A stretch of 32,031 bases of DNA from Candidatus Magasanikiibacteriota bacterium. GTDB lineage: Bacteria; Patescibacteriota; Patescibacteriia; Magasanikbacterales; 2-02-FULL-50-9b. A model generated the notes under the pieces. The model made no database searches, was not told the DNA's origin, and saw nothing but the letters and a program-made list of their open reading frames with translations. The position numbers were made by a program, and so were the translations under genes. Location of the stretch: assembly GCA_026396555.1 (NCBI GenBank), contig JAPLWO010000064.1:1-32031 (forward strand). Direction: 5' to 3'. Shown here piece by piece: positions 2 to 27,895 of the stretch. Within the stretch, counting starts at the first letter, position 1, and the number at the start of each line of letters is the position of its first letter.

Positions 2-1465
2 GGCAAATGCGTCTACTGTCCGACTGAAGTGCGCATGCCGAAAAGTTATATTGAAACAGAACCTGCAGCACAACGTGCGCTTAAAAATAATTTTGATCCG
101 TATAACCAAATTATTTCGCGTCTACGCGCGCTGGAAAATAATGGACACCCAACTGATAAAATTGAATTAATCGTCAAAGGTTGTACCTGGTCTGCGTATC
201 GTTGGGATTATCAGCTCTGGTTTATTCGTCGTTGCTTTGATGCGTGTAATGATTTCGGGTCTGAGCGAACAACCGAATCAAATGCGATTACCCGCGATCA
301 CGAATCTGGAACATTTAAATTTGTCGATTTGCCAGACATGCAAACGCACGACGTGATTAGCAAATTTACCAATGAAGAATTAGTTCGTCTCGAAGCTGCG
401 CAAGTTTTCAACGAATCGTCGGCGCACCGTGTGATTGGTTTGACGCTCGAAACGCGACCAGATTGGATTCGTCCACACACGATGTGGCAACTTCGAACGC
501 TTGGCTGTACACGCGTCGAACTTGGATTGCAGCACACCGACGACGACATTCTCGCACTCACGAAACGCGGACACACGATCGAACAGACCGCAGAGGCAAT
601 GGAATTATTGCGCCATGCAGGTTTTAAAGTTGATGTGCATACCATGCCACAACTTCCGGGATCAACACCGGAAAAAGATTATGCGATGTTCGAAAAAATT
701 TTTAATGACGAAAAATTGCGTCCTGACATGCTTAAAATTTATCCGTGCGTGGTAACACCTACCGCGGAAATTGCTGAGTGGTACGCGGCTGGATCGTACA
801 CGCCATACCCAACACCAGATTTAGTTGAAATGCTCGTGCGTGTAAAATCAAATTTAATTCCGCGCTACTGTCGCATTTCGCGTTTGATTCGCGATATTCC
901 AGGCGACGAAATTATCGCGGGAAATTTAGTAACGAATTTACGCGAAACAATTCAACACGAACTCGGTGTTCGTGGTTTAAAATGCGTTTGTTTGCGTTGT
1001 CGTGAGATTGGTCACGCGTCACAACATTCTCCCGCTCTCCTCTTACAGCTCGGCGACGCGACTGTATTTATTGATGAATACCGCGCGTCTGACGGAACGG
1101 AATATTTTTTGAGCATCGAGGATGCGGAGCGCCGCGCTGTTTTTGCGTTCGCCCGTCTCTATATTCCAGACGCAAACGCAACTGAAATGGTAGAAAAATT
1201 ACATGAATTACTTCCAGAAACGCGAAATACTGCATTTATTCGAGAACTCCATACATATGGATTTTTGGTTCCACTTACCGGCGACAACACCAAAGATCAA
1301 CAGCATAAAGGACTGGGCAAGAAATTAATGCTCGCAGCTGAAGAAGTCGCGCGCAAACACGGTCGCCCGACCATGACCGTTATTTCTGGAATCGGAGTTC
1401 GTGGATATTACGAAAAAATCGGTTATCGACGAGTTGGCACGTACATGGTAAAATCGTTGCAGTAA
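2..1465 (+). CDS. elp3: Elp3-type radical SAM + GNAT acetyltransferase (tRNA U34 modification enzyme homologue), 5' end cut by the window edge
   Basis: The frame of ORF 29..1465 stays open back to nt 2 and reads GKCVYCPTE, the end of a CxxxCxxC radical-SAM cluster motif, so the GTG at 29 is not the real start. The C-terminus HKGLGKKLMLAAEEVARKHG...VISGIGVRGYYEKIGYRRVGTYMVKSL matches the Elp3 GNAT end as I remember it. Confidence 0.85.
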   Translation, partial: GKCVYCPTEVRMPKSYIETEPAAQRALKNNFDPYNQIISRLRALENNGHPTDKIELIVKGCTWSAYRWDYQLWFIRRCFDACNDFGSERTTESNAITRDHESGTFKFVDLPDMQTHDVISKFTNEELVRLEAAQVFNESSAHRVIGLTLETRPDWIRPHTMWQLRTLGCTRVELGLQHTDDDILALTKRGHTIEQTAEAMELLRHAGFKVDVHTMPQLPGSTPEKDYAMFEKIFNDEKLRPDMLKIYPCVVTPTAEIAEWYAAGSYTPYPTPDLVEMLVRVKSNLIPRYCRISRLIRDIPGDEIIAGNLVTNLRETIQHELGVRGLKCVCLRCREIGHASQHSPALLLQLGDATVFIDEYRASDGTEYFLSIEDAERRAVFAFARLYIPDANATEMVEKLHELLPETRNTAFIRELHTYGFLVPLTGDNTKDQQHKGLGKKLMLAAEEVARKHGRPTMTVISGIGVRGYYEKIGYRRVGTYMVKSLQ

Positions 1466-2783: not shown

Positions 2784-3604
2784 TTTTGTCCGGAACCGCT
2801 CTCAGCGAGGAAATGCTCGCTCTTGTCCAAAATACTGTTGCCGAAAGTGGTTTGACACCTCGCCTCGCGGTTATTCAGGTTGGCAGCGATGCAGCGAGCG
2901 ATATTTACGTGTCGCTCAAATCAAAAATTGCTGCGCGTGTTGGAATTGCGCTCGAAAAATTTCATCAAGATTCTGCAACAACTGAACAACTCATCGAGTT
3001 AATCCACTCATTAAACGAACGTGCGGATGTTGACGCAATTTTAGTGCAGCTTCCATTGCCTGCAGGAATTGATACTGACGCGATTATTTCTGCGATCGAT
3101 CCAAAAAAAGATGTTGATGGTTTCCATCCAAAAAATATTGGTGCATACGTCACCGGTCAAGCAGTTCACACCCCTGTTTTATTACAAGCGATTGAATGGC
3201 TGCTCGGAAAAACAGGCGAAAAGTTTTCCGGAAAACAAGCGGTCGTCGTTGGAAAGTCAGATGTTTTTTTGCAACCACTCAGTTATTTACTCGCATTTCA
3301 TGGCATGCAGGTTTCAGAAATTAAACCCGCGGAACTTTCGGCTGAAAAAACGCGCGATGCAGATGTGCTCATCGTAGCAACCGGTAAACCAAAAACAATT
3401 ACCGCAGACATGGTAAAAGATGGCGCGATTGTAATTGATATTGGAATCAATCGGCTTGATGATGGAAAAATCGTCGGCGATGTTGATTTTGAATCCGTAC
3501 AACAAAAAGCTGCGTGGATCACGCCAACCCCGGGAGGCGTTGGACCTGTCACCATCGCAGCTTTAATGTGGAATACGCTTCGTTTAGCTCTCGATCGTTC
3601 CTAA
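2780..3604 (+). CDS. folD: Bifunctional methylenetetrahydrofolate dehydrogenase / methenyl-THF cyclohydrolase
   Basis: The start ATG overlaps the glyA stop (ATGA at 2780-2783). Motifs present: LAVIQVGSDAASDIYV, DVDGFHP, VVVGKSDV, and PTPGGVGPVTIA. Confidence 0.93.
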   Translation: MILSGTALSEEMLALVQNTVAESGLTPRLAVIQVGSDAASDIYVSLKSKIAARVGIALEKFHQDSATTEQLIELIHSLNERADVDAILVQLPLPAGIDTDAIISAIDPKKDVDGFHPKNIGAYVTGQAVHTPVLLQAIEWLLGKTGEKFSGKQAVVVGKSDVFLQPLSYLLAFHGMQVSEIKPAELSAEKTRDADVLIVATGKPKTITADMVKDGAIVIDIGINRLDDGKIVGDVDFESVQQKAAWITPTPGGVGPVTIAALMWNTLRLALDRS

Positions 3605-5662
3605 CACGCGCACATCGTTGACTGACGCATGATATTCAACCACCTCGTTTCGTGGCGTCACAAGATACGCGTGTTCTCTATCGTTTAAGAACACGCGTAC
3701 AATCGTACCGTCTGGTTTTTTTACTGCAACTTCAGCTGGAAACGGTTCTGGTAACATACCTAATTCTCTAAAACGATTACCATGACCATCGAGGTCTCTT
3801 AATTTTGTTGCAACGCGTCCGTCAGCCTCAAAATAGATATCATTCATGTGTTCGTAAATTGGATGCATGCGCTCGCCCAATGTTTTATACATCCACACTC
3901 GTTCTGGTTTATCAACAAACCGTTTTCCTTCAAACTGACCACGGAATTTCATTGATTGATGTTTGTCAGCTTCCCACACATTCACTACGCCATCTCCCGC
4001 ATCCTGATAATACGTTTGCGGTTTTCCAGATTGGTCAAATTCAAAATACCCAGGACGCTCACGTCGTGTGTTTCGCGCGATTTCAATCCGAAAACCAAAT
4101 GGCGCGCGCGAATCCTGAATCGCAGTTAAACGATCACCCTCATAGATCGGCGTTTGAATAATTCCGTGCGACATAAACGTGCGCTGCTTTTTATCTCCCG
4201 CCTCATACACCCAACCTTTGTGCAAAAACTGCGCCGTCTCGCGTGTGAGCATGGGGCCCGTTTTTGTTGTATCAAATGTTTTTATCAGCTCATACACATG
4301 AGATTTGATCGATCTCCCTGGATCAACATCCATGGAATGTCGTAGCCCCATCTCCACCGTTTCTGTGCCTTGTGTGGTTGCGGTACCAGGTGCTGGAGGA
4401 GTCCCACGCTCATCAATCGTCCGCTCTTCCAACAACGCAGCGATCCACGGAAGATCATTATCTGGAAGTAACGAAAGATGCTGTACACCATTACCCAATC
4501 GACGTGATAAATCCTGTTCAACTTGTGCGAGTTGCTCCTCGATAAATACGAGCACCCGTCCTTGCTGTTCACGCAGCTCTGGCGCAACGTACGGAATTGT
4601 TTCGTGATATGCGACCAACAGTCCTTTGAGGGGATCCCGCTCGATCGCTGATTTAAGCGGAATTGTTTTTTGAATAGTACGCTCCAATTCCTTAACAATT
4701 TGCTGCTGAATTCCAAGTAAATACGCTGGAAAATCAATGGTCGGTTGTGTTTTATCAATTAGTCTTCGATGTGCCATTAATTCTTGTGGTGTTGCGTCAG
4801 CGCCCGCCGCTACTGCACCACCCGCATCAAACATACCTGTTGCACGCGCCGAACCTGCTTCCAACATCCACGGTTCAATTGCTGCAGGCGCGTTGTGACG
4901 TGTGCCATTCAAACTACTTAACACGGTTCCCTCAGGCGATTGTGTCATTCCGGAGCGAGCATTTGGTCGAGACCAACGAAATAAGTTTCTCGTCGCATCT
5001 ATTGCAGCCACACCTGATCCGTTTCGTTCTCCCCATCCATACAATCGTGCAAAATCTATATCCTCCAGCTCGTCAATTACCGCGCTGGTTTGTAATGCGA
5101 CTAGATCTTGTTGAAGTGCAGCAATTTCTCGATTCAGTTGTTCTTCACTCGCAAAATTTTTCTGAGCAATATCTTTTTCATGCGCAAAAAACGCTTTCAC
5201 ATTTCCAAAGAATCTTAGATGTTTTTTTCGCGCATCCAAAAGCACCGACAACGCAGTCTGCTTCTCTTTGATTTGTTCTGGAATTCGAATGAGTCGATCA
5301 GCGCGCTCATCAAATCGCAAACGATCTTCTGTGCTCAAACTTTCGAACCAGTCATCAACAATAAATTTATTCCAATTTTCTGCTTCTTCGTGCCCAAAGC
5401 CGAGAGGAGCAGATAATTTTTCCCCCTCTTTCACGGCCATGTACAGTTCATACATACGATGCGGATTGCGCTCAAACATTCCACCTAATAATCGACGATA
5501 CCCAACAATACGCGATGCACGCATCTGTTCTTCAACTTCGCGCGGTGCTTTTGGCTCAGCTTCGCGTCGAGCCGCTGCAATAAAATCATGCTTCGCATCT
5601 TGACTCAATCCTTCCCACCAGTTCATGACGATCGGCTGCCAAATATACATCCACTGCTTCAA
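3584..5662 (-). CDS. Hypothetical large protein (~680-692 aa), last gene of the orphan operon
   Basis: Uninterrupted 692-codon ORF. The track start at 5662 is TTG; in-frame ATGs lie at 5650 and 5626. It overlaps the stop of the upstream 153-aa ORF (5586). It has a Gly/Ala-rich middle and a beta-looking C-terminal third. I recognise no family motif, and the start codon is uncertain. Confidence 0.7.
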   Translation of the reverse strand: MKQWMYIWQPIVMNWWEGLSQDAKHDFIAAARREAEPKAPREVEEQMRASRIVGYRRLLGGMFERNPHRMYELYMAVKEGEKLSAPLGFGHEEAENWNKFIVDDWFESLSTEDRLRFDERADRLIRIPEQIKEKQTALSVLLDARKKHLRFFGNVKAFFAHEKDIAQKNFASEEQLNREIAALQQDLVALQTSAVIDELEDIDFARLYGWGERNGSGVAAIDATRNLFRWSRPNARSGMTQSPEGTVLSSLNGTRHNAPAAIEPWMLEAGSARATGMFDAGGAVAAGADATPQELMAHRRLIDKTQPTIDFPAYLLGIQQQIVKELERTIQKTIPLKSAIERDPLKGLLVAYHETIPYVAPELREQQGRVLVFIEEQLAQVEQDLSRRLGNGVQHLSLLPDNDLPWIAALLEERTIDERGTPPAPGTATTQGTETVEMGLRHSMDVDPGRSIKSHVYELIKTFDTTKTGPMLTRETAQFLHKGWVYEAGDKKQRTFMSHGIIQTPIYEGDRLTAIQDSRAPFGFRIEIARNTRRERPGYFEFDQSGKPQTYYQDAGDGVVNVWEADKHQSMKFRGQFEGKRFVDKPERVWMYKTLGERMHPIYEHMNDIYFEADGRVATKLRDLDGHGNRFRELGMLPEPFPAEVAVKKPDGTIVRVFLNDREHAYLVTPRNEVVEYHASVNDVRVLGTIES

Positions 5663-6047
5663 ACCGAAACTTTTCCTGCATCGGTGGATATGGCGTTGCG
5701 GGAGCTAATTTCATGTATGATTCGAGCGGCACCTCTGTTTCTGCTTTTGGCTCTACTTTTGGTTCTGGTCCTGTTTTTACAGTTTCATTTTTTTCAATTC
5801 CTGCCAAAACATGCGGCATCATATCTTCAACCAACCCTGCGGCTGTGCGCTCGAGCTCCTCATTATCTTTCGCCTCTAACGGCTCCATAACGATCGGTAG
5901 CATGTCGTTTAATAACGCACGTGCTAAATCTGCAATTTCTTTTGATTCGGCAGAATCACGATGTGGTCGTCGTTTATTGTCATGCTGACCCGGCGTCCCA
6001 TTTCCTGGCTGTAAATCCGTTGAATTGTTTGGTAAACCTTCAGCCAT
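5586..6047 (-). CDS. Hypothetical acidic, Pro/Glu-rich (probably disordered) 153-aa protein
   Basis: The ATG at 6047 lies 1 nt after the TAA (6049-6051) of the upstream 1220-aa gene, and its 3' end overlaps the next ORF. It has low-complexity composition (EPKVEPKAETE) and no recognisable domain. Confidence 0.55.
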   Translation of the reverse strand: MAEGLPNNSTDLQPGNGTPGQHDNKRRPHRDSAESKEIADLARALLNDMLPIVMEPLEAKDNEELERTAAGLVEDMMPHVLAGIEKNETVKTGPEPKVEPKAETEVPLESYMKLAPATPYPPMQEKFRFEAVDVYLAADRHELVGRIESRCEA

Positions 6048-6048
6048 A

Positions 6049-9000
6049 TTATTCAGCTTTTTCAGACTTCAAACCCCACACTTCCTGTAATTTTCTAAGC
6101 CATAATTCATCAAGCTCTTCACGCCGTTCTGCGAGAATATCTCTATACGCAATCAGTCCTGAGCTTTCAATAAATGCCCGACGATATGCAAGCCAAAATT
6201 TCTCAGTTCCAAAAAATTTGCTTTGTTCATACGCAGTACGTATTTTATCAGTTGGTGGAGCTGACGCCATTTGCAACATTGTTTTTTCAGCATCATCATA
6301 AATCGTTTCGTCCATATCTTCGTCATATCGCTCAAGATGCTTATACACCTCATTATCATTTTCAACTTTCATGCGATCATGCAGCGCACGTCGAATTTCG
6401 GTGAACGATTTTACAATAGTCTCGCGCAATTTTCGTCCATCTTCTCCATAACGATTTGAATGATTTCTATTCAATCTTTGCAAAGCATCTTCATACGTTT
6501 TTTGCACCTCTGGTGCACACGACTCAAGTGCGAGACGTTTCTGCTCATCCAATAATTTAGCACCCTCTTCACCCGATAATGGTTTTTCAATTTTTCGCAT
6601 GCTTCCAAAAATTTCACCAGAAAATTTAAGACGTTTTTTGCCAACACGCGATTCTTTTCCAACTTTCCCTTCTGCTATGTCAGCATTTTCATCTGCAATA
6701 TATTCGGCAACTCCTTTTGGAGATTCAAATGTCTGGTCACCATTTTGCATAACCGCGGTCACCACTTGTTCGAAATTTTTGAATGTTGCGCTCGATGAGT
6801 TTGTAACTAAATATCGTCCATTTTTAATCACCTCACCAATCTGTCTTCCTTTTTCATCAATGTACAATCGCTCAGGAATCTGAATGCCGTCAGCCTTATT
6901 AAAGGGTGCCAAATTTATCACCGCTGTTTTTAATGACGCATTGTATGAAACATAGCAATCATATCCTGCAGCAAATGCCGCACGACCCTGAAGTTTTATG
7001 TTTTTATGTGGATCAAACAAAGTTTTTCCAAATCGTGTTTCACCTACAAATCCATCGCGTTCCAATAATCGAATTGCCGCAAGTGACGCATCGACCTGTT
7101 CACCCAATTCATGCGTCATCTCCTTCGTTTTTTCTAAATCTATATCGCCCAAATATGGACGAACATCAAGCGTCACAAAACGGCGCAGCACTTCTTGACG
7201 TAATTGTTCACGCTTATCTTCATCGCCAAGTTCTGGTCGATCAGCCAAGATTTTACTTTCGACTTCAGGCAAAACTGTTCTAAAAAATTTCACCACAACG
7301 TCATAGAACCCAAGCTTTGCCAGTTCGTTTCCAAACCCGTAAATATTTCTATCGTAATTTTCAATAATCGCACGCGTCCCTTCCCGACTTTCATATGGAC
7401 CAGTAAAACTATCCTCCTCACTCACGAACATCTGCAAATAATCGCGCAGCGCCATTTCCTCAGGAAGATCACCATCAAAAAATCCCATTTCTTTGAGCTG
7501 TCTCAATGTTGCTTCAGTTGAGCTTCTAATTTTTTTATTATCTTCATCCAGAAAAACACTTGCAACATCTTCGTTCTCAGCGCGATAAAGACCTTGTTTT
7601 CCATGTGTAATATCTAAATGAACTGCACCTGGAATATATGCGCCCTTGTTTCGTACAGAATCTGGCATGAACGGTGTGACTCGTGTTGTAATTCCTGCTT
7701 GTTCAAACAAATAAATTGCTGTTTCACCATCTAAATCTGATGGAAAATACAACGCACGCAGATTATCTGTTCCAAATGCCTCGGCAACCTCTGCACTCTG
7801 TAAACGCTCAAAAAATTTAATATACGCATCCCAATGATTTGGATTCAAAATTTTCCGAGCATTTTTTGGCGATTGTTTTTGACTTTCGAACGCTCTAAAT
7901 GCTTTAGCAGCTGATGCATGCAATTCGATTATTTCGATGATAACAGGATCAGTTACCATCGGTATCGGTTTAACTCGTCTATCTAAAAATGCTCCAAATT
8001 CATCAAAACCGTCACCCAAGACTTTTCCCGACGAACTCACCACTAAATTGAGCGGCTCTTTTTCTGAGCCCTCACGAATCAAATCAATTAATTGATGCTT
8101 ATTTTCACGACTATACGATTGTCGAAATGTGGAAATATTAAATAACGCCGGATTAATCGGTTTATTTAACTGTCTTTTTGTCGTAGACCTAAAATAATGC
8201 GACAGAGCCATGTCCACCTCAAACTGAAATTTAACTTCCTCCGGCGTCAAAATTTTTCCGTAATAATCTCCAAGTTCAATATTGCCACCCACTAATTTTG
8301 ATTCTCGTGCGCGTAGTTTCTCATCTGATTGATACCCACCGACAATTCGAACAATTGGAAATTCTCCCGTTGGTTTTCCTTCATCATCAAGTAAATATCC
8401 AGTTTTAACATCAATAATTTTGCGACCAACATCATCAAGCGAAATTTCAAAGGTTGCATCATTGGGCAACGTGTATAAACCCATGGACGGATTAAACGCA
8501 ATAGGTTGCATTGAATCTCCATCGTCAAATGCATTTTTTTCAACACCAAATTCATTTTCCTGTCCTGTCATTTCAGCTGGGTGTGTCACTAATTCGTCGG
8601 TTTCAATATCAGGCTCGCCAATCTCTTCTGTGCCTGGTTGTAACATTTCTTCGTGTTTTGGATGCATAATTTCCGCCAGTGCGTGAGACTGTTTATTACC
8701 CACTCCTTCTGTTTCATATGCGCTCTCCAAACGACGCAGCGTTTCTCCTGCAATCTGAGCGCGATAAAATAATCGCACATCGTCACTACCCGGCACCAAT
8801 TCGGCTTCACTATCAGCCAATTTTTTTAATTTTTCAACTTCTATTCTCAATAAATCTACACTTGCGCGTCCGGCTTCTTGCAAATATTCAACAGTGCGAT
8901 TTATTTTTTGCTCTCCATACACCAAAAACATATCATTCAAAACTTCCGTTTGATGATCTTTTATTTTTTCATTGATATATGTAGCAGCTGCTTTTTGCAT

Positions 9001-9711
9001 CTCAGTTCCATGATCTATATACGCAACTAATTTCGACTGAGTTCCAATTAATGTTTTAACATCAACTGCCTTATCTGATTCAAATAATTGGCCGACGGTT
9101 GATTCAAGCACCTGTGCAAATTCTTTTGATTCCAAAATTTCGTCTTCTGAAAATTCTTTTACTTGCTCAGATGCAGCCGGCTCTGGTTGTTGTGGCACAA
9201 CTTCAATCGGAGCAGATACTGGAGCTACAGGCTCTGTCTCAACTACCGTAATACCTTCCTCCTCACGATATCCAAACGCCTTTCGAACCTCCGCAAGTGT
9301 ATTTTTATCAGTATCTTCGTGCAACCCTTCCATCACCAGCTGCGCAGTCATCACCTGCAATAGTGCACCCTTCAATTTTGAAGGCTCCATTTTTTTACCT
9401 TTTGGATTATTCAATAAACTATTGATCAACGTTTCCACGCGCGCATTTGATCCGATTTTTTTTGCAGCAGCGACAATTTTTTCTGCATCCTGATCTAAAA
9501 TTGTCGCAGATTTTTTTCGAATCTCTGAATATACGCTCGCAGTCAACGTATCAAGCTTCATGACCTCTAAATCTGCTGCAAGCAAATAAATTTCATCGTT
9601 TGGATCTTTTGATTGCGCTTCGATATCCGCGATAACCTCTGTTGGCTTTTTTCCATTAATAAAAATTTGCGCGAACGCATTCTGTAATCCATTTCGATAT
9701 GACGCGCTCAT
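6049..9711 (-). CDS. Giant hypothetical protein (1220 aa from ATG 9711)
   Basis: 1222-codon open frame. The track start at 9717 is TTG. The ATG at 9709-9711 overlaps the TGA (9708-9710) of the upstream 72-aa ORF as ATGA. It contains a Pro-rich linker (VETEPVAPVSAPIEVVPQQPEPAAS), coiled-coil-like stretches, and a DHH-like motif triad near residues 657-726. No Walker A, helicase, HNH or signal-peptide motif was seen. Confidence 0.8.
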   Translation of the reverse strand: MSASYRNGLQNAFAQIFINGKKPTEVIADIEAQSKDPNDEIYLLAADLEVMKLDTLTASVYSEIRKKSATILDQDAEKIVAAAKKIGSNARVETLINSLLNNPKGKKMEPSKLKGALLQVMTAQLVMEGLHEDTDKNTLAEVRKAFGYREEEGITVVETEPVAPVSAPIEVVPQQPEPAASEQVKEFSEDEILESKEFAQVLESTVGQLFESDKAVDVKTLIGTQSKLVAYIDHGTEMQKAAATYINEKIKDHQTEVLNDMFLVYGEQKINRTVEYLQEAGRASVDLLRIEVEKLKKLADSEAELVPGSDDVRLFYRAQIAGETLRRLESAYETEGVGNKQSHALAEIMHPKHEEMLQPGTEEIGEPDIETDELVTHPAEMTGQENEFGVEKNAFDDGDSMQPIAFNPSMGLYTLPNDATFEISLDDVGRKIIDVKTGYLLDDEGKPTGEFPIVRIVGGYQSDEKLRARESKLVGGNIELGDYYGKILTPEEVKFQFEVDMALSHYFRSTTKRQLNKPINPALFNISTFRQSYSRENKHQLIDLIREGSEKEPLNLVVSSSGKVLGDGFDEFGAFLDRRVKPIPMVTDPVIIEIIELHASAAKAFRAFESQKQSPKNARKILNPNHWDAYIKFFERLQSAEVAEAFGTDNLRALYFPSDLDGETAIYLFEQAGITTRVTPFMPDSVRNKGAYIPGAVHLDITHGKQGLYRAENEDVASVFLDEDNKKIRSSTEATLRQLKEMGFFDGDLPEEMALRDYLQMFVSEEDSFTGPYESREGTRAIIENYDRNIYGFGNELAKLGFYDVVVKFFRTVLPEVESKILADRPELGDEDKREQLRQEVLRRFVTLDVRPYLGDIDLEKTKEMTHELGEQVDASLAAIRLLERDGFVGETRFGKTLFDPHKNIKLQGRAAFAAGYDCYVSYNASLKTAVINLAPFNKADGIQIPERLYIDEKGRQIGEVIKNGRYLVTNSSSATFKNFEQVVTAVMQNGDQTFESPKGVAEYIADENADIAEGKVGKESRVGKKRLKFSGEIFGSMRKIEKPLSGEEGAKLLDEQKRLALESCAPEVQKTYEDALQRLNRNHSNRYGEDGRKLRETIVKSFTEIRRALHDRMKVENDNEVYKHLERYDEDMDETIYDDAEKTMLQMASAPPTDKIRTAYEQSKFFGTEKFWLAYRRAFIESSGLIAYRDILAERREELDELWLRKLQEVWGLKSEKAE

Positions 9712-9926
9712 GCGCAACTGCTCCTCAGTTTTTTGTTCAGGTTGTATTGTTGGTTCACCAATTCGTTGTTCATGTCACATAGTAATAGTTTATACAGCTT
9801 GATAGTTAAAATCACGCGCTTCTCCACGAGCTCGATTAATCGTCCGGTTAATTCATTTTTTGTTCCGGTCGTTGCACCTGAAAGTCCGAATAGTGAAAGA
9901 ATATTTTGTTGAAGGAGCTGTGTCAT
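9708..9926 (-). CDS. Small hypothetical protein (72 aa), probably helical
   Basis: The ATG at 9926 lies 4 nt after the stop of the membrane-protein gene, and its stop overlaps the start of the giant gene (ATGA). This tight coupling on both sides is the main support for the call. No family was recognised. Confidence 0.5.
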   Translation of the reverse strand: MTQLLQQNILSLFGLSGATTGTKNELTGRLIELVEKRVILTIKLYKLLLCDMNNELVNQQYNLNKKLRSSCA

Positions 9927-9930
9927 AGAT

Positions 9931-10371
9931 TTAAAACATCAAAGTCATGATAAGACTTGAAATAATCAACTTCACGAGCCATCCGAAAATCTGTGCGCGT
10001 GTGACCTGTCGTGGATATTTCAAAAATAATTGTTGTGTTGCGTATACAGGAACGGGACCAATCAGCCACAATGTTACGCCGAGTACAATTCCGCGTGTTA
10101 CCGAATTTTCAAACACAATTCCCGGGCGCATCACTAAATAAAAAATCAAAAACGAAATACAGTATCCGAGTGTAATGAACAGTGATGTGCGGACGACGCG
10201 TTTTTGTGTTGCAACCGCATCATTACTTTCCATGGGTCGCCAAATTTCAGGCGCAAGCGCATAAAATTTTTGTACCCATTTCGCACCGCTGAAAAACCAG
10301 TCAACAAGCAACGAACTTGCGAACATGAGTAGCAGAGAACCTATGAAACGGACGAGTAATAATGTCCACAT
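9931..10371 (-). CDS. Small integral membrane protein (about 4 TM helices), first gene of the orphan operon
   Basis: 146-aa ORF starting at ATG 10371. It has four hydrophobic segments (LLLVRFIGSLLLMFASSLLV, SLFITLGYCISFLIFYLV, GIVLGVTLWLIGPVPV, IFGWLVKLIISSLIMTLMF). The -10 hexamer of TGcTATAAT ends 11 nt upstream of the ATG. Confidence 0.7.
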   Translation of the reverse strand: MWTLLLVRFIGSLLLMFASSLLVDWFFSGAKWVQKFYALAPEIWRPMESNDAVATQKRVVRTSLFITLGYCISFLIFYLVMRPGIVFENSVTRGIVLGVTLWLIGPVPVYATQQLFLKYPRQVTRAQIFGWLVKLIISSLIMTLMF

Positions 10372-10382
10372 AAGACGAAATA

Positions 10383-10391
10383 ATTATAGCA
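10383..10391 (-). promoter_or_regulatory. Extended -10 promoter element (TGcTATAAT) for the 10371..3584 operon
   Basis: The minus strand reads gTGcTATAATtatttcgtcttATG. No Shine-Dalgarno motif is present and the predicted leader is only a few nt long. Confidence 0.5.
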
Positions 10392-10406
10392 CAAGTTTTG
10401 TCTGCA

Positions 10407-10415
10407 TGATAGAAT
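10407..10415 (+). promoter_or_regulatory. Extended -10-like element (TGaTAGAAT), candidate promoter for the tsaE leader
   Basis: It sits back-to-back with the divergent operon promoter, with the two -10 elements about 19 bp apart. The -35 is weak. Confidence 0.35.
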
Positions 10416-13079: not shown

Positions 13080-13910
13080 TTAGATACTGTAAAAATCTCG
13101 TTCGTGTTCGCCCATTTCTGCGATATTCCCAAACCGGTCCTGCGCGGGGTCGATGATGTAAATTTGGCCCCATTCACTCGTAAACCGTACCCACGCATGG
13201 CTCATGCGATAAAACTTGCCGCGCTGGAGTGACACTTTTCCACCCATGTGGCCGTGTTCCTGCAACAACTCGACGAGTACTGCGTACAAACATACTTGGT
13301 GACGACACACGCCTGCACGAGCTCGGATGAACACGTCGAGCGTCAATTTCACGTCGTTCTTTGCGTTGTATTCAGCTACGAGCCGCTCCGCGCGGTGTTT
13401 ATCGAACGGCATTTCGTCTTGCACAAAACGCATGAGCAAAAACAGTTGTTCGCGCTGCATGATTCCGCGATTCATGCGCGCACGATGTTGCCACAAATAT
13501 TCTGCCATGAACCGCAACCGCAGCCACCGAAATTTTCGGTACAACCGCATAATTTCGCCTTCTGGCCGCGGATCAATGACGAGCGCCTCCCGTGGACTGT
13601 GGCCCATGTACACACTATCCGTAACCCGCGTGTCAAAACCAGCGATCCGCCGATCCAGATACACGCCGTAGGGGGCATCTGGGCAGTCGGCACTCGGCGG
13701 CGTATAATGCGGATTGTCGGCCAGACGGTTCATCAACACGCGTGTGTTGCGCATATCGCTTTTGCGCGGCGGATTGAGCATCGGACCGATGAGCGTATCA
13801 AAACTCGCGGTTTCGCGCGTCGCCAGGCCTTTCAGGTCGATAGGCGGCTCGTCAACGCGGGACAAATCAAGAGAAATGTGGTTAGGCTTTGTCGTTGAAT
13901 CAGTTTTCAT
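13080..13910 (-). CDS. Hypothetical protein with a transglutaminase-like / papain-fold Cys-His-Asp core
   Basis: The ATG at 13910 is preceded by GGAGGTG with a 5-nt spacer (ggaggtgttcATG), so the longer track start at 13955 is unlikely. The C-terminal motif string GVCRHQVCLYAVLVELL ... SHAWVRF ... YIIDPAQD matches the transglutaminase-like G-x-C / H-x-W / D-P pattern. G+C is higher than in neighbouring genes. Confidence 0.7.
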   Translation of the reverse strand: MKTDSTTKPNHISLDLSRVDEPPIDLKGLATRETASFDTLIGPMLNPPRKSDMRNTRVLMNRLADNPHYTPPSADCPDAPYGVYLDRRIAGFDTRVTDSVYMGHSPREALVIDPRPEGEIMRLYRKFRWLRLRFMAEYLWQHRARMNRGIMQREQLFLLMRFVQDEMPFDKHRAERLVAEYNAKNDVKLTLDVFIRARAGVCRHQVCLYAVLVELLQEHGHMGGKVSLQRGKFYRMSHAWVRFTSEWGQIYIIDPAQDRFGNIAEMGEHERDFYSI

Positions 13911-13926
13911 GAACACCTCCGAAAAA

Positions 13927-13955
13927 ACAGTAGCTGATTTTTTGTTTCGTGTCAA
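13927..13955 (-). promoter_or_regulatory. Sigma70-type promoter for the 13910 gene (TTGACA-17-TACTGT)
   Basis: The minus strand reads TTGACAcgaaacaaaaaatcagcTACTGTtttttcGGAGGtgttcATG. Confidence 0.5.
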
Positions 13956-14340: not shown

Positions 14341-15057
14341 GTGTACAAACCGACATTAGTCATGAAGTTTCTGCAAGCGACCCCGGGAATTCCGGTTCCA
14401 CGCATTCGATGGTTTCTTGATGATGTACCACTTGGACCGCCCACGTACTCAATGCAACGCGCGCTTTCCGCTTTGGATGCAATGCCAGCGCCCATGCGCG
14501 AAGCACTAGGCATTACACAAAGTGTTATTGAGAACTACGCCGTGCAAGTCAAAGACCTAGCCACACAACATGGTTTGCCACCTAATCGTACAGAGGACGA
14601 TTTACGAAGCTTGAATATCGCAGCAATTTCAAACCTGGCTCGAGCGAAGCATCCAGGGAAGCACGTCAACAATCTCTACATCATGCTTGAGATGCACTAT
14701 GCGGCCTCCGACATTCCGGTCGTTATGTCCTGGTGCGGAAAAAGTTGTTGCCCATCAAATCCAACACCTGGGATTCCGTGTGTTCAGTTTGGAACGGTCC
14801 GCGATGGACTACTGAGTCTCGTCGGGCCACCACTCGCATCAACACGACTCTTCTACTTCATCATCGAACAGTCCGAACTGCACCCGGTGGAGCTCAATCA
14901 ATTTCGACTGCCTGAAACCGCGCGTCGGACGATCGAGGCGTCACTTACACCTGACATCGGCATTGCGTTTGAGAATCCGACCTATGACCTGCACGCGCTG
15001 AGGATCATTGAAAAGATGACGCACGTACAACTTGCAGAACTCTACTTCGCGACTTGA
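14341..15057 (+). CDS. Hypothetical protein (238 aa), GC-enriched orphan
   Basis: The GTG at 14341 is preceded by GGGAG with a 5-nt spacer; an alternative ATG lies at 14362. The gene is followed by a terminator. No recognisable motif. Confidence 0.55.
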   Translation: MYKPTLVMKFLQATPGIPVPRIRWFLDDVPLGPPTYSMQRALSALDAMPAPMREALGITQSVIENYAVQVKDLATQHGLPPNRTEDDLRSLNIAAISNLARAKHPGKHVNNLYIMLEMHYAASDIPVVMSWCGKSCCPSNPTPGIPCVQFGTVRDGLLSLVGPPLASTRLFYFIIEQSELHPVELNQFRLPETARRTIEASLTPDIGIAFENPTYDLHALRIIEKMTHVQLAELYFAT

Positions 15058-15127: not shown

Positions 15128-15913
15128 TTAAAATTCTAAAATCATCGGCAAATGATCTGAGATCGGCGCATCTGGTACTTCAAATTTTTTTACAGAGATT
15201 CCTGGCGACACAAATGTAAAGTCAGCATACTCCTGACGAAATACAAATTCAGGATGTAATTCTTTACATAAAGTTCCACGCGTCGATACAATTTTAAAAT
15301 CTTTTACCAAATCTTTATATCCCGCACGCTCAAACATTTTTACACTTTCGGTTTCAGGTAATAAATTAAAATCACCACAAATTATTTTTTCTCCCGACTG
15401 ATGGGCAAAGAAATCTAAAATTTTCTGGGACTGTGCAATTCTCTCCGGCGTATCAAATTTGTCACCAGGAAATGGCATGCCGTGCATGTTACAAATCATG
15501 AGTGGTGCGCCGTCAATCACGAGCTGCGTATACAAAAAACTATTTGGCTTAGATAAATTATCCTGCACTTCATAATCATTCGGCGAGCCCCATACAAAAA
15601 CGTCCCCCATTTTTTCAACCGAAAAACCTTTTTTTACAAACATTGCTTTTCCAAATGCAATTCGATCACTCACGTTGTGACATTCAAATAATTGCGTTCG
15701 TGTTGGTTTAAAAAATACGTTAAATTCAGGCAAAACCGCAGTTAATTCTTCCAATAAATTCGATCGCCACCCGCGTTCATTTTCAATCCCGTGGCGTCCA
15801 TCTAAAATTTCCTGAAAACAGAAAATATCAGTGGTCGCAGCTTCGCGCTGCACCCATTCCATGAGAGGTTCAAAAACTCTTCCACCAAACGTATTTAATG
15901 AAATCAATTTCAT
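15128..15913 (-). CDS. Endonuclease/exonuclease/phosphatase (EEP) family protein
   Basis: Starts at ATG 15913. Motifs present: FCFQE (metal-binding Glu), ICGDFNLLPE, and C-terminal ISDHLPMILEF. Confidence 0.85.
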   Translation of the reverse strand: MKLISLNTFGGRVFEPLMEWVQREAATTDIFCFQEILDGRHGIENERGWRSNLLEELTAVLPEFNVFFKPTRTQLFECHNVSDRIAFGKAMFVKKGFSVEKMGDVFVWGSPNDYEVQDNLSKPNSFLYTQLVIDGAPLMICNMHGMPFPGDKFDTPERIAQSQKILDFFAHQSGEKIICGDFNLLPETESVKMFERAGYKDLVKDFKIVSTRGTLCKELHPEFVFRQEYADFTFVSPGISVKKFEVPDAPISDHLPMILEF

Positions 15914-17201: not shown

Positions 17202-17804
17202 TTAAAATGGAAGTGTTAAATTCATTCCCGTTCCAGCCGGTGCACCTTCTGCATCTGCCACCACACGTTCCACTCCAAATTTAACTGGAATTGGTTTCAT
17301 ACCACCCGCAACTTCTGGATAAAAAATCTGCTTGTGCGTTTTTCCGTATTCGTATACATCGCGCGTGATTCGAACGTCGTCCTCACAATATTTTTCAATT
17401 TTATCCCACTCACCCGCCTTAAACCATTCAACCGCCTGCAAACCGTGGCCAGATTTTTGCGTTCCGAGTGTTGCTTTCGCAATATCATCGAGCTTTGGAC
17501 GAAACCCCGCAGAGCGACGAATCTCTTCAAGCAAATCGAGATGTGGAATTTTTGATAAATCACCGGTGTAATAATTTTGCAACACCGGTACATCAAAAAA
17601 TTTCGAGTTATATCCGATGAGCCGTTCCGCACGTTCTAAAATCGGCCACAAATCTTTCAAATTTTCTTCACGAAATGTATGGAACGAATCATCCTCATAA
17701 CAATACACAACAACCACCGAGACTTTTAAGCCACGATGATTACCTGCACCAACTTCTTCAAACGTATTCTGTGTTTCAATGTCAAAGACCACTTCGCGCG
17801 ACAT
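17202..17804 (-). CDS. DEDD-type 3'-5' exonuclease (RNase H-like fold, PolB-exonuclease-related)
   Basis: Acidic motifs present: VVFDIETQN, YNSKFFDVPVL, and YCEDDVRITRDVY. The stop lies 1 nt before the murF ATG. Confidence 0.75.
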   Translation of the reverse strand: MSREVVFDIETQNTFEEVGAGNHRGLKVSVVVVYCYEDDSFHTFREENLKDLWPILERAERLIGYNSKFFDVPVLQNYYTGDLSKIPHLDLLEEIRRSAGFRPKLDDIAKATLGTQKSGHGLQAVEWFKAGEWDKIEKYCEDDVRITRDVYEYGKTHKQIFYPEVAGGMKPIPVKFGVERVVADAEGAPAGTGMNLTLPF

Positions 17805-20557: not shown

Positions 20558-21106
20558 CTATCGCCCACCATTGCACGTTGCGGTCGCCCACAAGCCACGA
20601 CCCGCCGCGTGTGCAGCGGTTTGCAATTTCAAAAACTCAACAGGTTTTTCAAATTTGAATTTCGTATACGCACGCGCATAGCCCTCATTAATCATTTCTG
20701 CATTCACTAAAGTTCCGTCTTGCGCATACACATATCGCAGCAAACGATTGTATCTATCTCGATCCGCACTTTTTGCGTCAGATACCAGTCGCACCGGCTG
20801 CCCATTAATAAGCTCGTGTAGCCGCGCACTCGCTTCATGCGCAAAACATTGCACAAGTTTTCGTGGATCAACTGCTTCTGGAGTATCAATGCCAACCATA
20901 CGCACTTTTTCTTCCACCCCATTAACGTCCGCCACAAACGTATCGCCATCAACTGTTCTGGTGACGAGCGAAAACCCAGGAGGTGTTGGAGCTGCTGACG
21001 GAACTTCTGATAATGGCGACGCTTGCACATCAACCAACCTGGTTTTAATCTGACCAGCTGCAATAACTAACAAAATCGCAATCACCCATCTTATTTTTTT
21101 GTTCAT
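20558..21106 (-). CDS. Secreted or membrane-anchored thermonuclease (staphylococcal nuclease, SNase fold)
   Basis: N-terminal signal/anchor MNKKIRWVIAILLVIAAG. Motifs present: VDGDTF, VRMVGIDTPE, RYNRLLRYV, and NAEMINEGYARAY. Confidence 0.88.
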   Translation of the reverse strand: MNKKIRWVIAILLVIAAGQIKTRLVDVQASPLSEVPSAAPTPPGFSLVTRTVDGDTFVADVNGVEEKVRMVGIDTPEAVDPRKLVQCFAHEASARLHELINGQPVRLVSDAKSADRDRYNRLLRYVYAQDGTLVNAEMINEGYARAYTKFKFEKPVEFLKLQTAAHAAGRGLWATATCNGGR

Positions 21107-21202: not shown

Positions 21203-22756
21203 TTATCGCACAAGACCACCGGGGCCTCCGATATCAAGTGGACGTGATTGAATAGCACGTTTCTCTTGTCGCTTCTTACTTGCTTCCAAAAATGCTAATG
21301 TCTGCGCTTCTGCAGTTTGCGGACCGTATACAACTTCAGGAGCACCTGCAACACGCAAACTTTCAACTTCATTTACCAAATCACGTTCGTCCTGCGCAAG
21401 TTTATTATATTCTGCGACCACCGAATCAATCGCTTTTTCATTATCATTTTTTCCAATTACGAAACTTACAAAGCGACCAAGGCCAGACTTTACAAGTTTG
21501 TATTCATTTTTGAGCGGATCTTTTGTAACGCGTCCACCTGCAATCGCAGCAGTCAAAAACTCATCCTTTGTTTCAAGTTTCTTCATAGTGTTGCGCGTAT
21601 CTGCGAGTTCCGCTGCAGCCGCCGCAAACGGATCCTCAACCGCCACCATATTTGAACGTTCGACGGAACCCTTTGCACCCGCGTTTGCGAATCCTGCGAC
21701 CTTACGAGACCCACTGAAACGTTCTGCGGGAACAAATTTATTTACCAATTCGACTTCGATATCTTTAAGTTCATTAAATCGTTTTACGCCCTGCTGAACG
21801 CTCCACACCTGATTCGGTGTTAACAAATTCTTATTTATCATTTTCAATTTACCCGAATATTCGAAATCAACACATCCTGAAAACTTTGTGAAGAGATCGA
21901 GCTTAATCGCTTCCATTTCTTTCTCATTCCGCTGCTGCTCCGCCTCATATGATTCTGGGCTACGAATCGGCTCCTTTTTTTCTAACTTATCAATTACAAC
22001 ATTTGATGCAAGTTTTTCTGCATCCGTAACTTCCGCAGGAGTCATCCGATGTAATTCATCCGTTGCCTCAAATTGCGCATCCTGTTTAGCAATTCTCTGT
22101 GCGCGCACAAGAGCTTCGTCTGCCTCTGCATTAATTTCTCCTGCAGTCCGAGTAAATGAACCTGGACTTGGCTTATAAGGAGCAAATTGCGGTTTCGGCT
22201 CTTCCATTTTCGGTGCAACTGCAGCAGGCGCGTCAGCTGGTGAAATGTCAGGCATCATCTTTGACAAATCTCTTGTGTGAAGCGCTTCACGAACGTCACT
22301 CGCACGCTGTTCGTCTTGTACGCTATGGAGTTTTGCATCAGCTTTTTCCATTGCTCCTTTTACCGCAACTAATTCATTAGGATCTTTTAGTAAACCTTTT
22401 TCTTGTGCATCTTCTAAAAGAGTGTCGCGTTCACGATAGGTCTGTAATAATTTCTGAAGTGAGTTAATAACATGCGTTCGGTCTGCGGTAATCGCTGCAA
22501 GTAAACCCGCACTTTTTTCATCATCAACTGAACCTAATGAACGCTCTTCTGCAAGTGACGCCTGGTTTTCTTTTACCGTTTCTCCAGTACGATCAATTTC
22601 TTTGAGTAATAATTTTAGCGCGCTTTCGTTAACTGCGAGTTGAGCTTTTAAAAATTTTTCTGGACCGATACTTGATGCAGCCTCCTGTTTTTTCTGAGGC
22701 TTCTCCGACTGCACTGCAGTTGGTTTTTGTAATTTTTCTGCGGCTGAAGATCTCAT
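21203..22756 (-). CDS. Hypothetical coiled-coil-rich protein (517 aa)
   Basis: Long ATG-initiated ORF rich in Lys, Glu and Ala, with no signal peptide and no recognised motif. A TGcTATAAT lies at 22808-22816 upstream. Confidence 0.65.
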   Translation of the reverse strand: MRSSAAEKLQKPTAVQSEKPQKKQEAASSIGPEKFLKAQLAVNESALKLLLKEIDRTGETVKENQASLAEERSLGSVDDEKSAGLLAAITADRTHVINSLQKLLQTYRERDTLLEDAQEKGLLKDPNELVAVKGAMEKADAKLHSVQDEQRASDVREALHTRDLSKMMPDISPADAPAAVAPKMEEPKPQFAPYKPSPGSFTRTAGEINAEADEALVRAQRIAKQDAQFEATDELHRMTPAEVTDAEKLASNVVIDKLEKKEPIRSPESYEAEQQRNEKEMEAIKLDLFTKFSGCVDFEYSGKLKMINKNLLTPNQVWSVQQGVKRFNELKDIEVELVNKFVPAERFSGSRKVAGFANAGAKGSVERSNMVAVEDPFAAAAAELADTRNTMKKLETKDEFLTAAIAGGRVTKDPLKNEYKLVKSGLGRFVSFVIGKNDNEKAIDSVVAEYNKLAQDERDLVNEVESLRVAGAPEVVYGPQTAEAQTLAFLEASKKRQEKRAIQSRPLDIGGPGGLVR

Positions 22757-26992: not shown

Positions 26993-27796
26993 TTAGTACC
27001 GCGCGATCACTGTTGGAACGGTCCACTGAATGTTGTTCTTGCGCATGAACTTAGCCATTTTGTCTTCGGTGCCGGCTTCTACTCTCGTAAAACGGCCGGG
27101 TTCCTTTGAAAACTTGTCTGGCAACAGAAGAAGCGATCGACGACTTTCGTTCGCGCCGCCCTGAACAAACAATCCGCCGATCCACAAACCAGGCTGACGA
27201 CCACTACGCACTTCGTAATGCCACCGACGATGCATGCAGAGCGCTGCAAGTGCACCGATATCAGCGGGCACTTGTCCAGATTCCATCACCTCATGCGGAG
27301 TTTTACCCACGTTGGTCGCAAAGTCATGTGTTTCCCACACCAACTGACAATTACGTAAAAAATCACCACCTAATGAATATCGAAACACACGTTCATCTGG
27401 CTGCAATCGTGGCATCCCTTCCGCAGTTAGATAAAACTTTTCAGCTTCTCTGAAACGACGGTCATCTCCGCCGTTAATTACCAACGTATGTGCATTCCCT
27501 GGAGACGCAATCACGTTAGTAACGCGCATGATCGCATCATGCAACTGACCAGAACTACGATACGGTTCCGGCATCAAGTCAACTTGAAGTTGCATGCATG
27601 ACCACAGGCCTTGATCATGACACATGAGCACGTGTTCAAAAGCCGCTTGCACCATTCGCTCTGCGATCTCAGGATACTTAATGATCGATTCTGCAAGATC
27701 AATGGAAAAACCCGCCTCCCTCATCACACGTTTGAGTTCCGTCAATACGGAATCCGGAATTGCTCCGAAATCCTTAAATTGTGAAAACCTTTTCAT
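26993..27796 (-). CDS. Hypothetical protein (267 aa), GC-enriched orphan
   Basis: I prefer the ATG at 27796 (MKRFSQFKDFG), which is preceded by acaGGGAGtGGAGc. The longer track start at 27895 would run through the predicted promoter. No family motif was recognised. Confidence 0.6.
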   Translation of the reverse strand: MKRFSQFKDFGAIPDSVLTELKRVMREAGFSIDLAESIIKYPEIAERMVQAAFEHVLMCHDQGLWSCMQLQVDLMPEPYRSSGQLHDAIMRVTNVIASPGNAHTLVINGGDDRRFREAEKFYLTAEGMPRLQPDERVFRYSLGGDFLRNCQLVWETHDFATNVGKTPHEVMESGQVPADIGALAALCMHRRWHYEVRSGRQPGLWIGGLFVQGGANESRRSLLLLPDKFSKEPGRFTRVEAGTEDKMAKFMRKNNIQWTVPTVIARY

Positions 27797-27866
27797 GCTC
27801 CACTCCCTGTAACTGGCTGACCATTGGACCGGACGTTTGCCGGGGCATGGCTGACCAACTGAGTGG

Positions 27867-27895
27867 ATAGTAGATGAATGTAAGACAAAAGTCAA
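27867..27895 (-). promoter_or_regulatory. Sigma70-type promoter for the 27796 gene (TTGACT-17-TACTAT)
   Basis: The minus strand reads cacggTTGACTtttgtcttacattcatcTACTATccactc. Confidence 0.55.

Follow-up and report, generated by a model that had tools for sequence, protein, structure and literature searches.

Candidate phyla radiation (CPR) genomes are tiny, yet one clade among them devotes about 6.8 kb to a conserved operon without an assigned function. What kind of system does this operon encode, and what might its largest protein do? The copy considered here lies on the minus strand, between tsaE and folD, of contig JAPLWO010000064.1 (assembly GCA_026396555.1, Candidatus Magasanikiibacteriota bacterium), whose 32,031 nt are called the window below; the operon takes up 21.2% of it. 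A preliminary description, drawn from the letters alone, had presented five translationally coupled genes built around two large orphan proteins. Its five co-directional open reading frames (ORFs; Table 1), their junctions, a TGcTATAAT element, the overlap with folD and the share of about 21% were all recovered where it had placed them; its gene count and the word "orphan" did not survive comparison with relatives. The reading preferred here is that of a vertically inherited four-gene operon, damaged in this copy, whose third gene would encode a giant protein with a core derived from the DHH superfamily. Taken as a whole, this reading seems to us somewhat better than an even choice.

A conserved cassette and its probably damaged copy

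An exhaustive HMMER search of 1.84 billion representative proteins with the giant yielded 16 homologues, ten of them at E < 1e-30. Word-index searches returned, for the giant, the query alone (one member, on one contig, from one sample), and, for the giant and two gene 4 alignments together, essentially the queries plus one new relative. The same cassette occupies the interval between tsaE and folD in 11 independent other loci, from Magasanikbacteria-type genomes, in the order TypA ... TsaE(-), gene 1, a DUF5663 gene (gene 2), the giant (gene 3), gene 4, folD(-), SHMT(-), radical-SAM(-). In context look-ups and locus scans the arrangement was identical wherever enough flanking DNA was present. 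It is full at L081, L082, L083, L084/85, L086/87, and L094 and partial at L089/90, L091/92, and L093 (L numbers designate loci, P numbers proteins); a JGI metagenome scan gave two further loci only. The order of the ORFs, whose conservation the preliminary description had proposed to check, is kept in these loci, with the difference that its 153-aa and 690-aa genes are not separate: the gene count in relatives is four, falling to three wherever gene 3 is fused to gene 4, with ancestral sizes of 141-149, 103-105, 1091-1565, and 689-883 aa for genes 1 to 4.

The giant core and the gene 4 module are found on one polypeptide at L001 (2215 aa) and L002 and in P0011 (1983 aa) and P0017. Such Rosetta-stone fusions, in at least four lineages, argue that the products of genes 3 and 4 act together. 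L002 (CAZUSU010000023.1) is titled "uncultured Gammaproteobacteria"; its TypA is 81% identical to that of the window and it carries a fused cassette, and the bin label is almost certainly wrong.

At L003 (71% TypA identity) the backbone is intact, the cassette is absent and tsaE directly abuts folD, which restricts the cassette to a sub-clade; loci of less closely related Patescibacteria have none beside TypA. On this comparison the operon is one predicted transcription unit, rare and chromosomal, and vertically inherited in a sub-clade of Candidatus Magasanikbacteria (Patescibacteria/CPR). The same absence at L003, on the same backbone, could instead mark a defence or accessory island, with a nuclease-type effector and a membrane protein, gained and lost between strains. 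Such an island would also suit the lower GC content of the cassette relative to its flanks and its fast evolution: in one genome pair the giant is 36% and gene 4 32% identical, against 82% for TypA and 62% for folD. Against it stand the lack of PADLOC matches (all five products being negative at E <= 0.1), the lack of integrase or transposase genes, and the failure to find relatives on viral contigs, in phage records or on plasmids, while the constant chromosomal site and the conserved promoter speak for vertical inheritance. An island is, in our judgment, decidedly unlikely.

Gene 4 is a single ORF in six relatives and is fused to the giant in four others; only in this contig is its frame broken. 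The 692-aa ORF of the window is 33-38% identical over its full length to residues 1550-2214 of the L001 protein and to L081 and L082, with homology starting at its residue 6-7 (window 5644). The 153-aa ORF, which is acidic (pI 4.8) as first described, opens at the same TAATATGGCTGAA junction as the L084 gene 4, is colinear with residues 74-129 of the L083 gene 4 (36% over 66 aa, E 6e-4), and has N-terminal motifs common to gene 4 (M-A/S-E...RRR; SKEIADLARAL, compare TKELAAMERAI; LE..MKLAPAT, compare LE..LRLFPET); its homologous part ends near 5667. In gene 4 orthologues the first 105-195 residues are variable and the conserved body opens with "...EQKF-IWEPQIE-WW". Deleting 22 nt (5645-5666) from the window would give a single 813-aa ORF with the junction QEKF/IWQP, against EQKF/IWEP in relatives, and deleting one T of the adjacent TTT run would give a single ORF of 820 aa. 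Also missing from the window, immediately upstream of the break, is a conserved helix some 30 aa long (AETAxVIxDLxSGxxPVxxVRAGLTE). Because of the colinear homology, the shared junction and the restoration of one ORF, the two ORFs are taken as two fragments of gene 4. A four-gene operon with gene 4 split is very probable, and for annotation this makes the 153-aa "gene" a gene 4 fragment.

Whether the split is real is a separate question. The gene 4 break, and possibly the short gene 2, might be assembly or sequencing artefacts, in an organism with an intact gene 4 of 813-820 aa. That the window sequence is known from one contig in one sample counts against a genuine lesion, as do the repair of the frame by a single-base deletion in the TTT run and the fact that each gene 4 half is a long, uninterrupted ORF in which conserved residues are kept. 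The other conserved genes of the contig (TypA, TsaE, folD, SHMT, the giant, and others) are nevertheless intact, with no sign of a general indel problem; the lesion is complex, with some 22 extra nt beside the loss of a helix of about 30 codons, which is not typical of homopolymer error; and gene 2 lacks about 96 nt that have left no trace in other frames. Given the intact genes and the complexity of the lesion, we lean towards a real break and think an artefact rather doubtful.

As a further possibility, all five genes might be functional, the 153-aa and 692-aa proteins being made separately by restart at TTG 5662, ATG 5650, or ATG 5626, with the split tolerated or adaptive. The 153-aa ORF does keep the conserved gene 4 start context, TAATATGGCTGAA, and the start codons of the 692-aa frame lie inside its overlap with the 153-aa ORF (41, 65, or 77 nt for ATG 5626, ATG 5650, and TTG 5662, respectively); moreover, gene 4 varies most in its N-terminal extension of 105-195 aa, and the family tolerates fusion and fission of genes 3 and 4. 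No relative is split, however, no Shine-Dalgarno element precedes the internal starts, the conserved helix is missing at the break, and ribosomes ending the 153-aa ORF would stop 41-77 nt downstream of the internal starts, a position unfavourable for reinitiation. Five functional genes are thus improbable. Programmed +1 frameshifting at the break was also considered and judged unlikely: neither a stop nor a rare codon occurs at the site, a stimulator upstream is lacking, and the break is absent from all relatives.

Gene 2 also differs from its orthologues. In its 72-aa product only residues 1-42 are conserved, with 67-74% identity to the 103-105-aa orthologues of L001, L081, and L082, the figures for L081 and L082 being 69-74%. 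The L081 orthologue passes the DUF5663 (PF18908) threshold (25.6 bits vs. 23.7, residues 21-90); the window product has no DUF5663 match at E <= 1, below the gathering threshold, with about two thirds of the domain (about 96 nt) gone. An in-frame internal deletion with a conserved tail was entertained and dropped, after three of four shuffle tests rejected similarity of the 30-aa tail to the orthologues and a frame check found the missing part in none of the reading frames. Judged by these alignments, the window gene 2 is a truncated DUF5663 homologue, not a full member. A literature search on DUF5663 found no papers. At L091/L092, the locus of P0013 in a more distant lineage, there is no DUF5663 gene, and a gene for a 149-aa membrane protein directly precedes the giant. 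At least one lineage can thus do without gene 2, a point that bears on its truncation in the window. With gene 4 split and gene 2 truncated, the window copy of the operon appears partly damaged and may be decaying.

The gene 1 product is basic (pI 10.2) with four hydrophobic, putatively transmembrane (TM), segments, in keeping with the preliminary description. Its orthologues are 33-51% identical and occupy the same position in all relatives. The window protein matches DUF1761 (PF08570) with 24.4 bits (E 3.8e-5; gathering threshold 31 bits). With three of four tested orthologues, the matches range from E 3.8e-5 to 8e-3, all sub-threshold; the orthologues (23.5, 22.5, and 17 bits) cover most of the 123-position model. 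The gene 1 product is probably a distant DUF1761 relative. Apart from these leads, searches of Pfam, NCBIfam, PHROG, PADLOC, and PDB sequences gave no above-threshold match for any of the five products. The preliminary remark that none could be assigned to a known family by eye accordingly stands insofar as no product falls in a characterised family and the large proteins have no confident profile match, and needs amending for the gene 2 orthologues (DUF5663) and, below threshold, gene 1 (DUF1761).

The giant protein and the DHH superfamily

The giant is acidic, with a variable N-terminal part, a conserved core, and a helical tail that ends in a family motif. Since four homologues (P0002, P0003, P0004, and P0008) terminate in this same C-terminal helix motif (...GLxAY...W...W-stop), gene 3 naturally ends at the stop at 6049. 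An AlphaFold2 model of the core, built from a 14-sequence alignment, reached pLDDT 83.7 and pTM 0.84. Although the aligned cores are only 22-40% identical to that of the window, the six residues listed as invariant in Table 1 are the same in all 14 sequences.

These residues fall into four motifs. Motif I has the DxD pattern and resembles the RecJ sequence D-A/V-D-G-V-T/V-A/S, and the Asp residues of motifs II and IV follow in an order and at spacings comparable to RecJ, as judged from the pattern and from the alignment with P0014-P0016. In DrNrnA the motif I Asp residues are the metal ligands D38 and D40, and those of motifs II and IV are D95 and D171; of the two His residues of DHH, the first likewise binds the metal and the second places the phosphate of the substrate (PMC11229311). 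At motif III the literal Asp-His-His is replaced by D-E and then a variable residue (D/N/G) in 13 of the 14 aligned sequences; LDHHG occurs there only in P0014, and in the shorter relatives P0015 and P0016. H703, the invariant His, stands three residues past the motif II Asp; P0015 and P0016, two of the three canonical-DHH small relatives, lack this His, and H703 looks like a relocated active-site His. The C-terminal lobe has conserved signatures of its own, FGKTLFDP and AFAAGYDCYVxYN.

The main argument for a DHH origin comes from the three small proteins. P0014-P0016 (440-588 aa) were significant in the exhaustive search (E 7.8e-9 to 6.7e-5) and carry TDLDG / VDTG(H) / LDHHG / VDN. Aligned with the giant core by hhalign, they match column for column (probability 98.9%, E 1.9e-17), with LDHH falling onto FLDED. 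The degenerate DHH-like triad that the preliminary description had offered as its one lead is thereby borne out as homology to proteins with a canonical DHH. P0014 itself matches Pfam DHH over motifs II-III, below threshold (E 0.028; 15 bits vs. a gathering score of 28). It is encoded in a different CPR genome (L095, 6001-7569), between gyrB and a NUDIX hydrolase gene and with YbaB downstream, a neighbourhood of DNA and nucleotide metabolism; those of P0015 and P0016 have no consistent functional context.

The DHH fold consists of a five-stranded parallel sheet and a DHHA1 lobe, joined by a linker. When the core model was compared with the PDB by Foldseek, all but one of the matches with probability >= 0.1 were DHH-superfamily proteins: the PF0399 DHH domain (5yh1), archaeal RecJ2 (7yik, 7ykv), and Cdc45 (8j09, 7pfo, 8b9d, 5dgo, 7qhs). 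In BFVD the highest-probability match was a phage RecJ, with a phage repair exonuclease and several unnamed proteins also among the matches. None of these is significant, the best DHH-family matches being PF0399 DHH (E 0.31, TM-score 0.35) and the phage RecJ (E 0.22, probability 0.30), but DHH proteins are the sole family to recur among the weak matches in the two libraries.

Several results weigh against this assignment. Neither the PDB nor BFVD gave a Foldseek match to the core at E <= 1e-3, and TM-scores were 0.2-0.36. The giants have neither His of the DHH motif, and the GGGH motif of DHHA1 is not recognisable in the C-terminal lobe. There was no significant match to the DHH profiles (PF01368/PF02272), Pfam DHH matching P0014 alone; three profiles run against PDB sequences, one built from the entire core, one from its motif sub-domain, and one from the subgroup of small proteins, retrieved no DHH protein, only coiled-coil noise; and hhalign of the motif sub-domain with a genuine RecJ (L020) gave a probability of 0.4%. 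Nor does gene 4 lend firm ground: its AlphaFold2 model, from four sequences, has pLDDT 58, with a helical N-terminal half including a long hairpin (coiled-coil), a poorly predicted middle, and, at the C-terminus, a beta-rich domain of some 250 aa; given this low confidence its weak fold matches (WD40/beta-propeller-like, HlyD coiled coil) are leads only. On balance, a DHH-superfamily origin of the giant core still seems probable. A HAD-type reading of the "DLDGE" sequence was discarded, as there were no HAD fold matches and the later motifs fit DHH.

Junctions, promoter and surroundings

Genes 1 and 2 are separated by 4 nt, gene 2 and the giant overlap in an ATGA (9708-9711), and 1 nt (6048) separates the giant from the 153-aa ORF. 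Since 6 of 20 other same-strand junctions in this genome are also <= 12 nt, tight junctions alone are not unusual, and the reality of the unit rests on its conservation in relatives. There, all junctions have the form TAA-N(1-11)-ATG, with a single exception (a 20-nt overlap in L089), and the sequence upstream of the gene starts is A/T-rich with no clear Shine-Dalgarno element; together these features fit termination-reinitiation coupling. The tight translational coupling proposed in the preliminary description is in this sense upheld by co-occurrence and junction form, and not by the short spacings it had relied on. A Shine-Dalgarno-like GAGGAG before the window's giant is unusual, with no counterpart at the equivalent junction in relatives.

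At the head of the operon lies the extended -10 element (TGCTATAAT); TTGTGCTATAAT, followed by 11 nt and the gene 1 ATG, is kept in 8 of 9 syntenic relatives. Given the typical spacing of 6-8 nt from -10 to start, we infer a near-leaderless operon mRNA with a 5′ untranslated region of 3-5 nt. The box ATTCTATCAT reads ATGATAGAAT on the plus strand, an extended -10-like sequence facing the divergent tsaE; candidate roles are the -35 region of the operon promoter, a divergent tsaE promoter forming a back-to-back pair with it, or a regulator site. A generic scan inside the operon found 8 promoter-like sites against 14.2 expected and 9 terminator-like sites against 7.1 expected, none above chance, which agrees with the earlier picture of a single promoter and no internal terminator. 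A weak hairpin with a T-run inside folD could be put forward as the operon terminator with low confidence, such sites not being above chance in the region. A gene 4/folD 3′ overlap, of 21-27 nt, is also present in L081, L082, L083, L084, and L086.

The rest of the window is chromosomal housekeeping (SHMT, folD, TsaE, TypA, Mur ligases, FtsEX, SOD, AhpC, and tRNAs), and its TypA, 82% identical to that of MFQD01000038, assigns the contig to Candidatus Magasanikbacteria (Patescibacteria/CPR). The GC content of the giant gene (0.39-0.40, window 6001-10000) is below that of the flanking housekeeping genes (0.44-0.49), which could reflect either a K/E-rich composition or a different evolutionary history. 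Three more nuclease-type genes, an Exo_endo_phos family member, an RNase H-like 3′-5′ exonuclease, and a staphylococcal-nuclease homologue, lie elsewhere on the contig, and four ORFs have no Pfam match at E <= 1e-3 (Table 1). At the contig edge, the radical-SAM/GNAT (ELP3-like) ORF has 478 aa, where relatives have 577-580 aa, and lacks about 100 codons at its N-terminus; there is an in-frame stop within the first 28 nt.

Table 1. Positions of the features discussed in the text (window coordinates).
Feature	Position	Strand	Remarks
Gene 1 ORF	9931-10371	-	146 aa
Gene 2 ORF	9708-9926	-	72 aa
Gene 3 ORF (giant)	6049-9711 or 6049-9717	-	ATG 9711, 1220 aa; TTG 9717, 1222 aa
153-aa ORF (very probably 5′ fragment of gene 4)	5586-6047	-	
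692-aa ORF (very probably 3′ fragment of gene 4)	3584-5662	-	
+1 frame break in gene 4	~5641-5666	-	
Overlap of gene 4 (-) and folD (+) 3′ ends	3584-3604		21 nt
Conserved core of giant (residues 375-1030)	6622-8589	-	alignment A1
DHH-type motif block of giant	7399-7737	-	
Motif I, D659-L-D661-G-E-T-A			invariant D659, D661
Motif II, H-L-D700-I-T-H703-G	H703, 7603-7605	-	invariant D700, H703
Motif III position, F-L-D722-E723-D724	D722-D724, 7540-7548	-	invariant D722
Motif IV, E-E-D767-S-F-T-G771			invariant D767
GAGGAG, Shine-Dalgarno-like	9721-9726	-	9 nt upstream of giant ATG (9711)
Extended -10 element, TGcTATAAT (TGCTATAAT)	10383-10391	-	11 nt upstream of gene 1 ATG
Box ATTCTATCAT	10406-10415	-	fixed distance upstream of operon -10, in 8/9 relatives
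Weak hairpin and T-run (candidate terminator)	3512-3524	-	60 nt past gene 4 stop, inside folD
Nuclease-type genes	15128-15913, 17202-17804, 20558-21106	-	
ORFs without Pfam match	13080-13955, 14341-15057, 21203-22756, 26993-27895		291, 238, 517, and 300 aa
Radical-SAM/GNAT ORF	29-1465	+	478 aa

Possible function and comparison with known systems

If the giant core descends, as a two-lobed domain, from the DHH superfamily (RecJ/NrnA/Cdc45-like), the change from DHH to D-E-D/N/G, together with the new invariant His after the motif II Asp, would amount to a remodelled metal-binding phosphoesterase site. Replacement of the DHH His residues by Glu and Asp/Asn, along with the new motif II His, suggests a site that has been remodelled and is not simply dead. 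As a best guess, the giant and the gene 4 protein would hydrolyse a phosphodiester substrate (nucleic acid, oligonucleotide, or cyclic nucleotide), with the gene 4 protein supplying interaction or substrate-handling domains through its coiled coil and beta-rich domain. The DUF5663 protein might serve as an adaptor and the four-TM gene 1 protein as a membrane anchor; such tethering of the giant and gene 4 proteins is hypothetical, and we hold it to be rather unlikely. The envelope-anchored multiprotein assembly suggested in the preliminary description is likewise hypothetical; the fusions speak for a physical or functional tie between genes 3 and 4.

It is also conceivable that the giant is a Cdc45-like pseudo-enzyme scaffold, the cassette then being a structural or interaction assembly at the envelope or host interface with no phosphoesterase chemistry. 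Loss of the DHH His residues is also seen in Cdc45, a non-catalytic relative, which is among the recurrent weak fold matches of the core; both His residues are replaced here, and the proteins combine extensive acidic regions of variable sequence with long coiled coils and a beta-propeller-like domain, as interaction platforms typically do. One argument against a scaffold is that five acidic residues and one His are invariant at metal-ligand positions in cores only 22-40% identical to that of the window, a conservation that would be difficult to account for unless a metal or substrate were bound. We regard a pure scaffold as doubtful; that the giant is an active phosphoesterase rather than a scaffold is itself a tentative proposal, to which we give somewhat less than even weight.

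A more elaborate picture can be drawn, and it is quite unlikely to be right in all its parts. It would be a machine specific to Magasanikbacteria, a DHH-type phosphoesterase in which the His pair has become carboxylates and a His has moved to motif II, working in an obligate complex with a coiled-coil/beta-propeller-like protein, to which it is in some cases fused, and with a DUF5663 adaptor and a four-TM anchor. It might act at a host interface or, in an auxotrophic CPR cell, process imported nucleic acids or nucleotides at the membrane.

What the comparison adds is a defined family with a fixed chromosomal position, a conserved and predictedly near-leaderless promoter, fusions that tie two of the products together, and a confidently folded core with invariant residues. 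The locus is a clade-restricted, uncharacterised system whose central protein probably belongs, as a strongly diverged member, to a known enzyme superfamily. An active core would widen the DHH superfamily to include an enzyme that lacks the DHH motif, whereas an inactive one would give bacteria their equivalent of the Cdc45-type pseudo-enzyme.

Among known systems, the two accessory proteins lead only to families of unknown function, DUF5663, whose threshold gene 2 orthologues pass, and DUF1761, which gene 1 and its orthologues match near full length but below threshold. The giant core can be compared with the DHH/DHHA1 superfamily (RecJ, NrnA, GdpP, RecJ2/GAN, and Cdc45), with which it shares the order and spacing of four Asp-centred motifs, namely DxDGxTA, hhhD, the D-H-H position, and D-S/T-x-x-G, and may share, judging from the predicted structure, a two-lobed architecture with a helical linker. 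It differs in having D-E-D/N/G for DHH and an extra invariant His after motif II, and in lying within a protein of 1100-1600 aa that has its own N-terminal beta/alpha domain and a helical tail. GdpP-type phosphodiesterases offer a likeness in concept, a DHH-type catalytic module at the membrane (PMC11229311), although the TM protein here is a separate 146-aa product. A further comparison is with the small CPR proteins P0014-P0016, homologous to the giant core over both lobes and sharing the signatures GF-V-x-E-S/T-x-x-GK-x-L-x-D and G-Y/F-D-x-Y-x-x-Y-N; they are stand-alone proteins with a canonical DHH, encoded outside the four-gene cassette.

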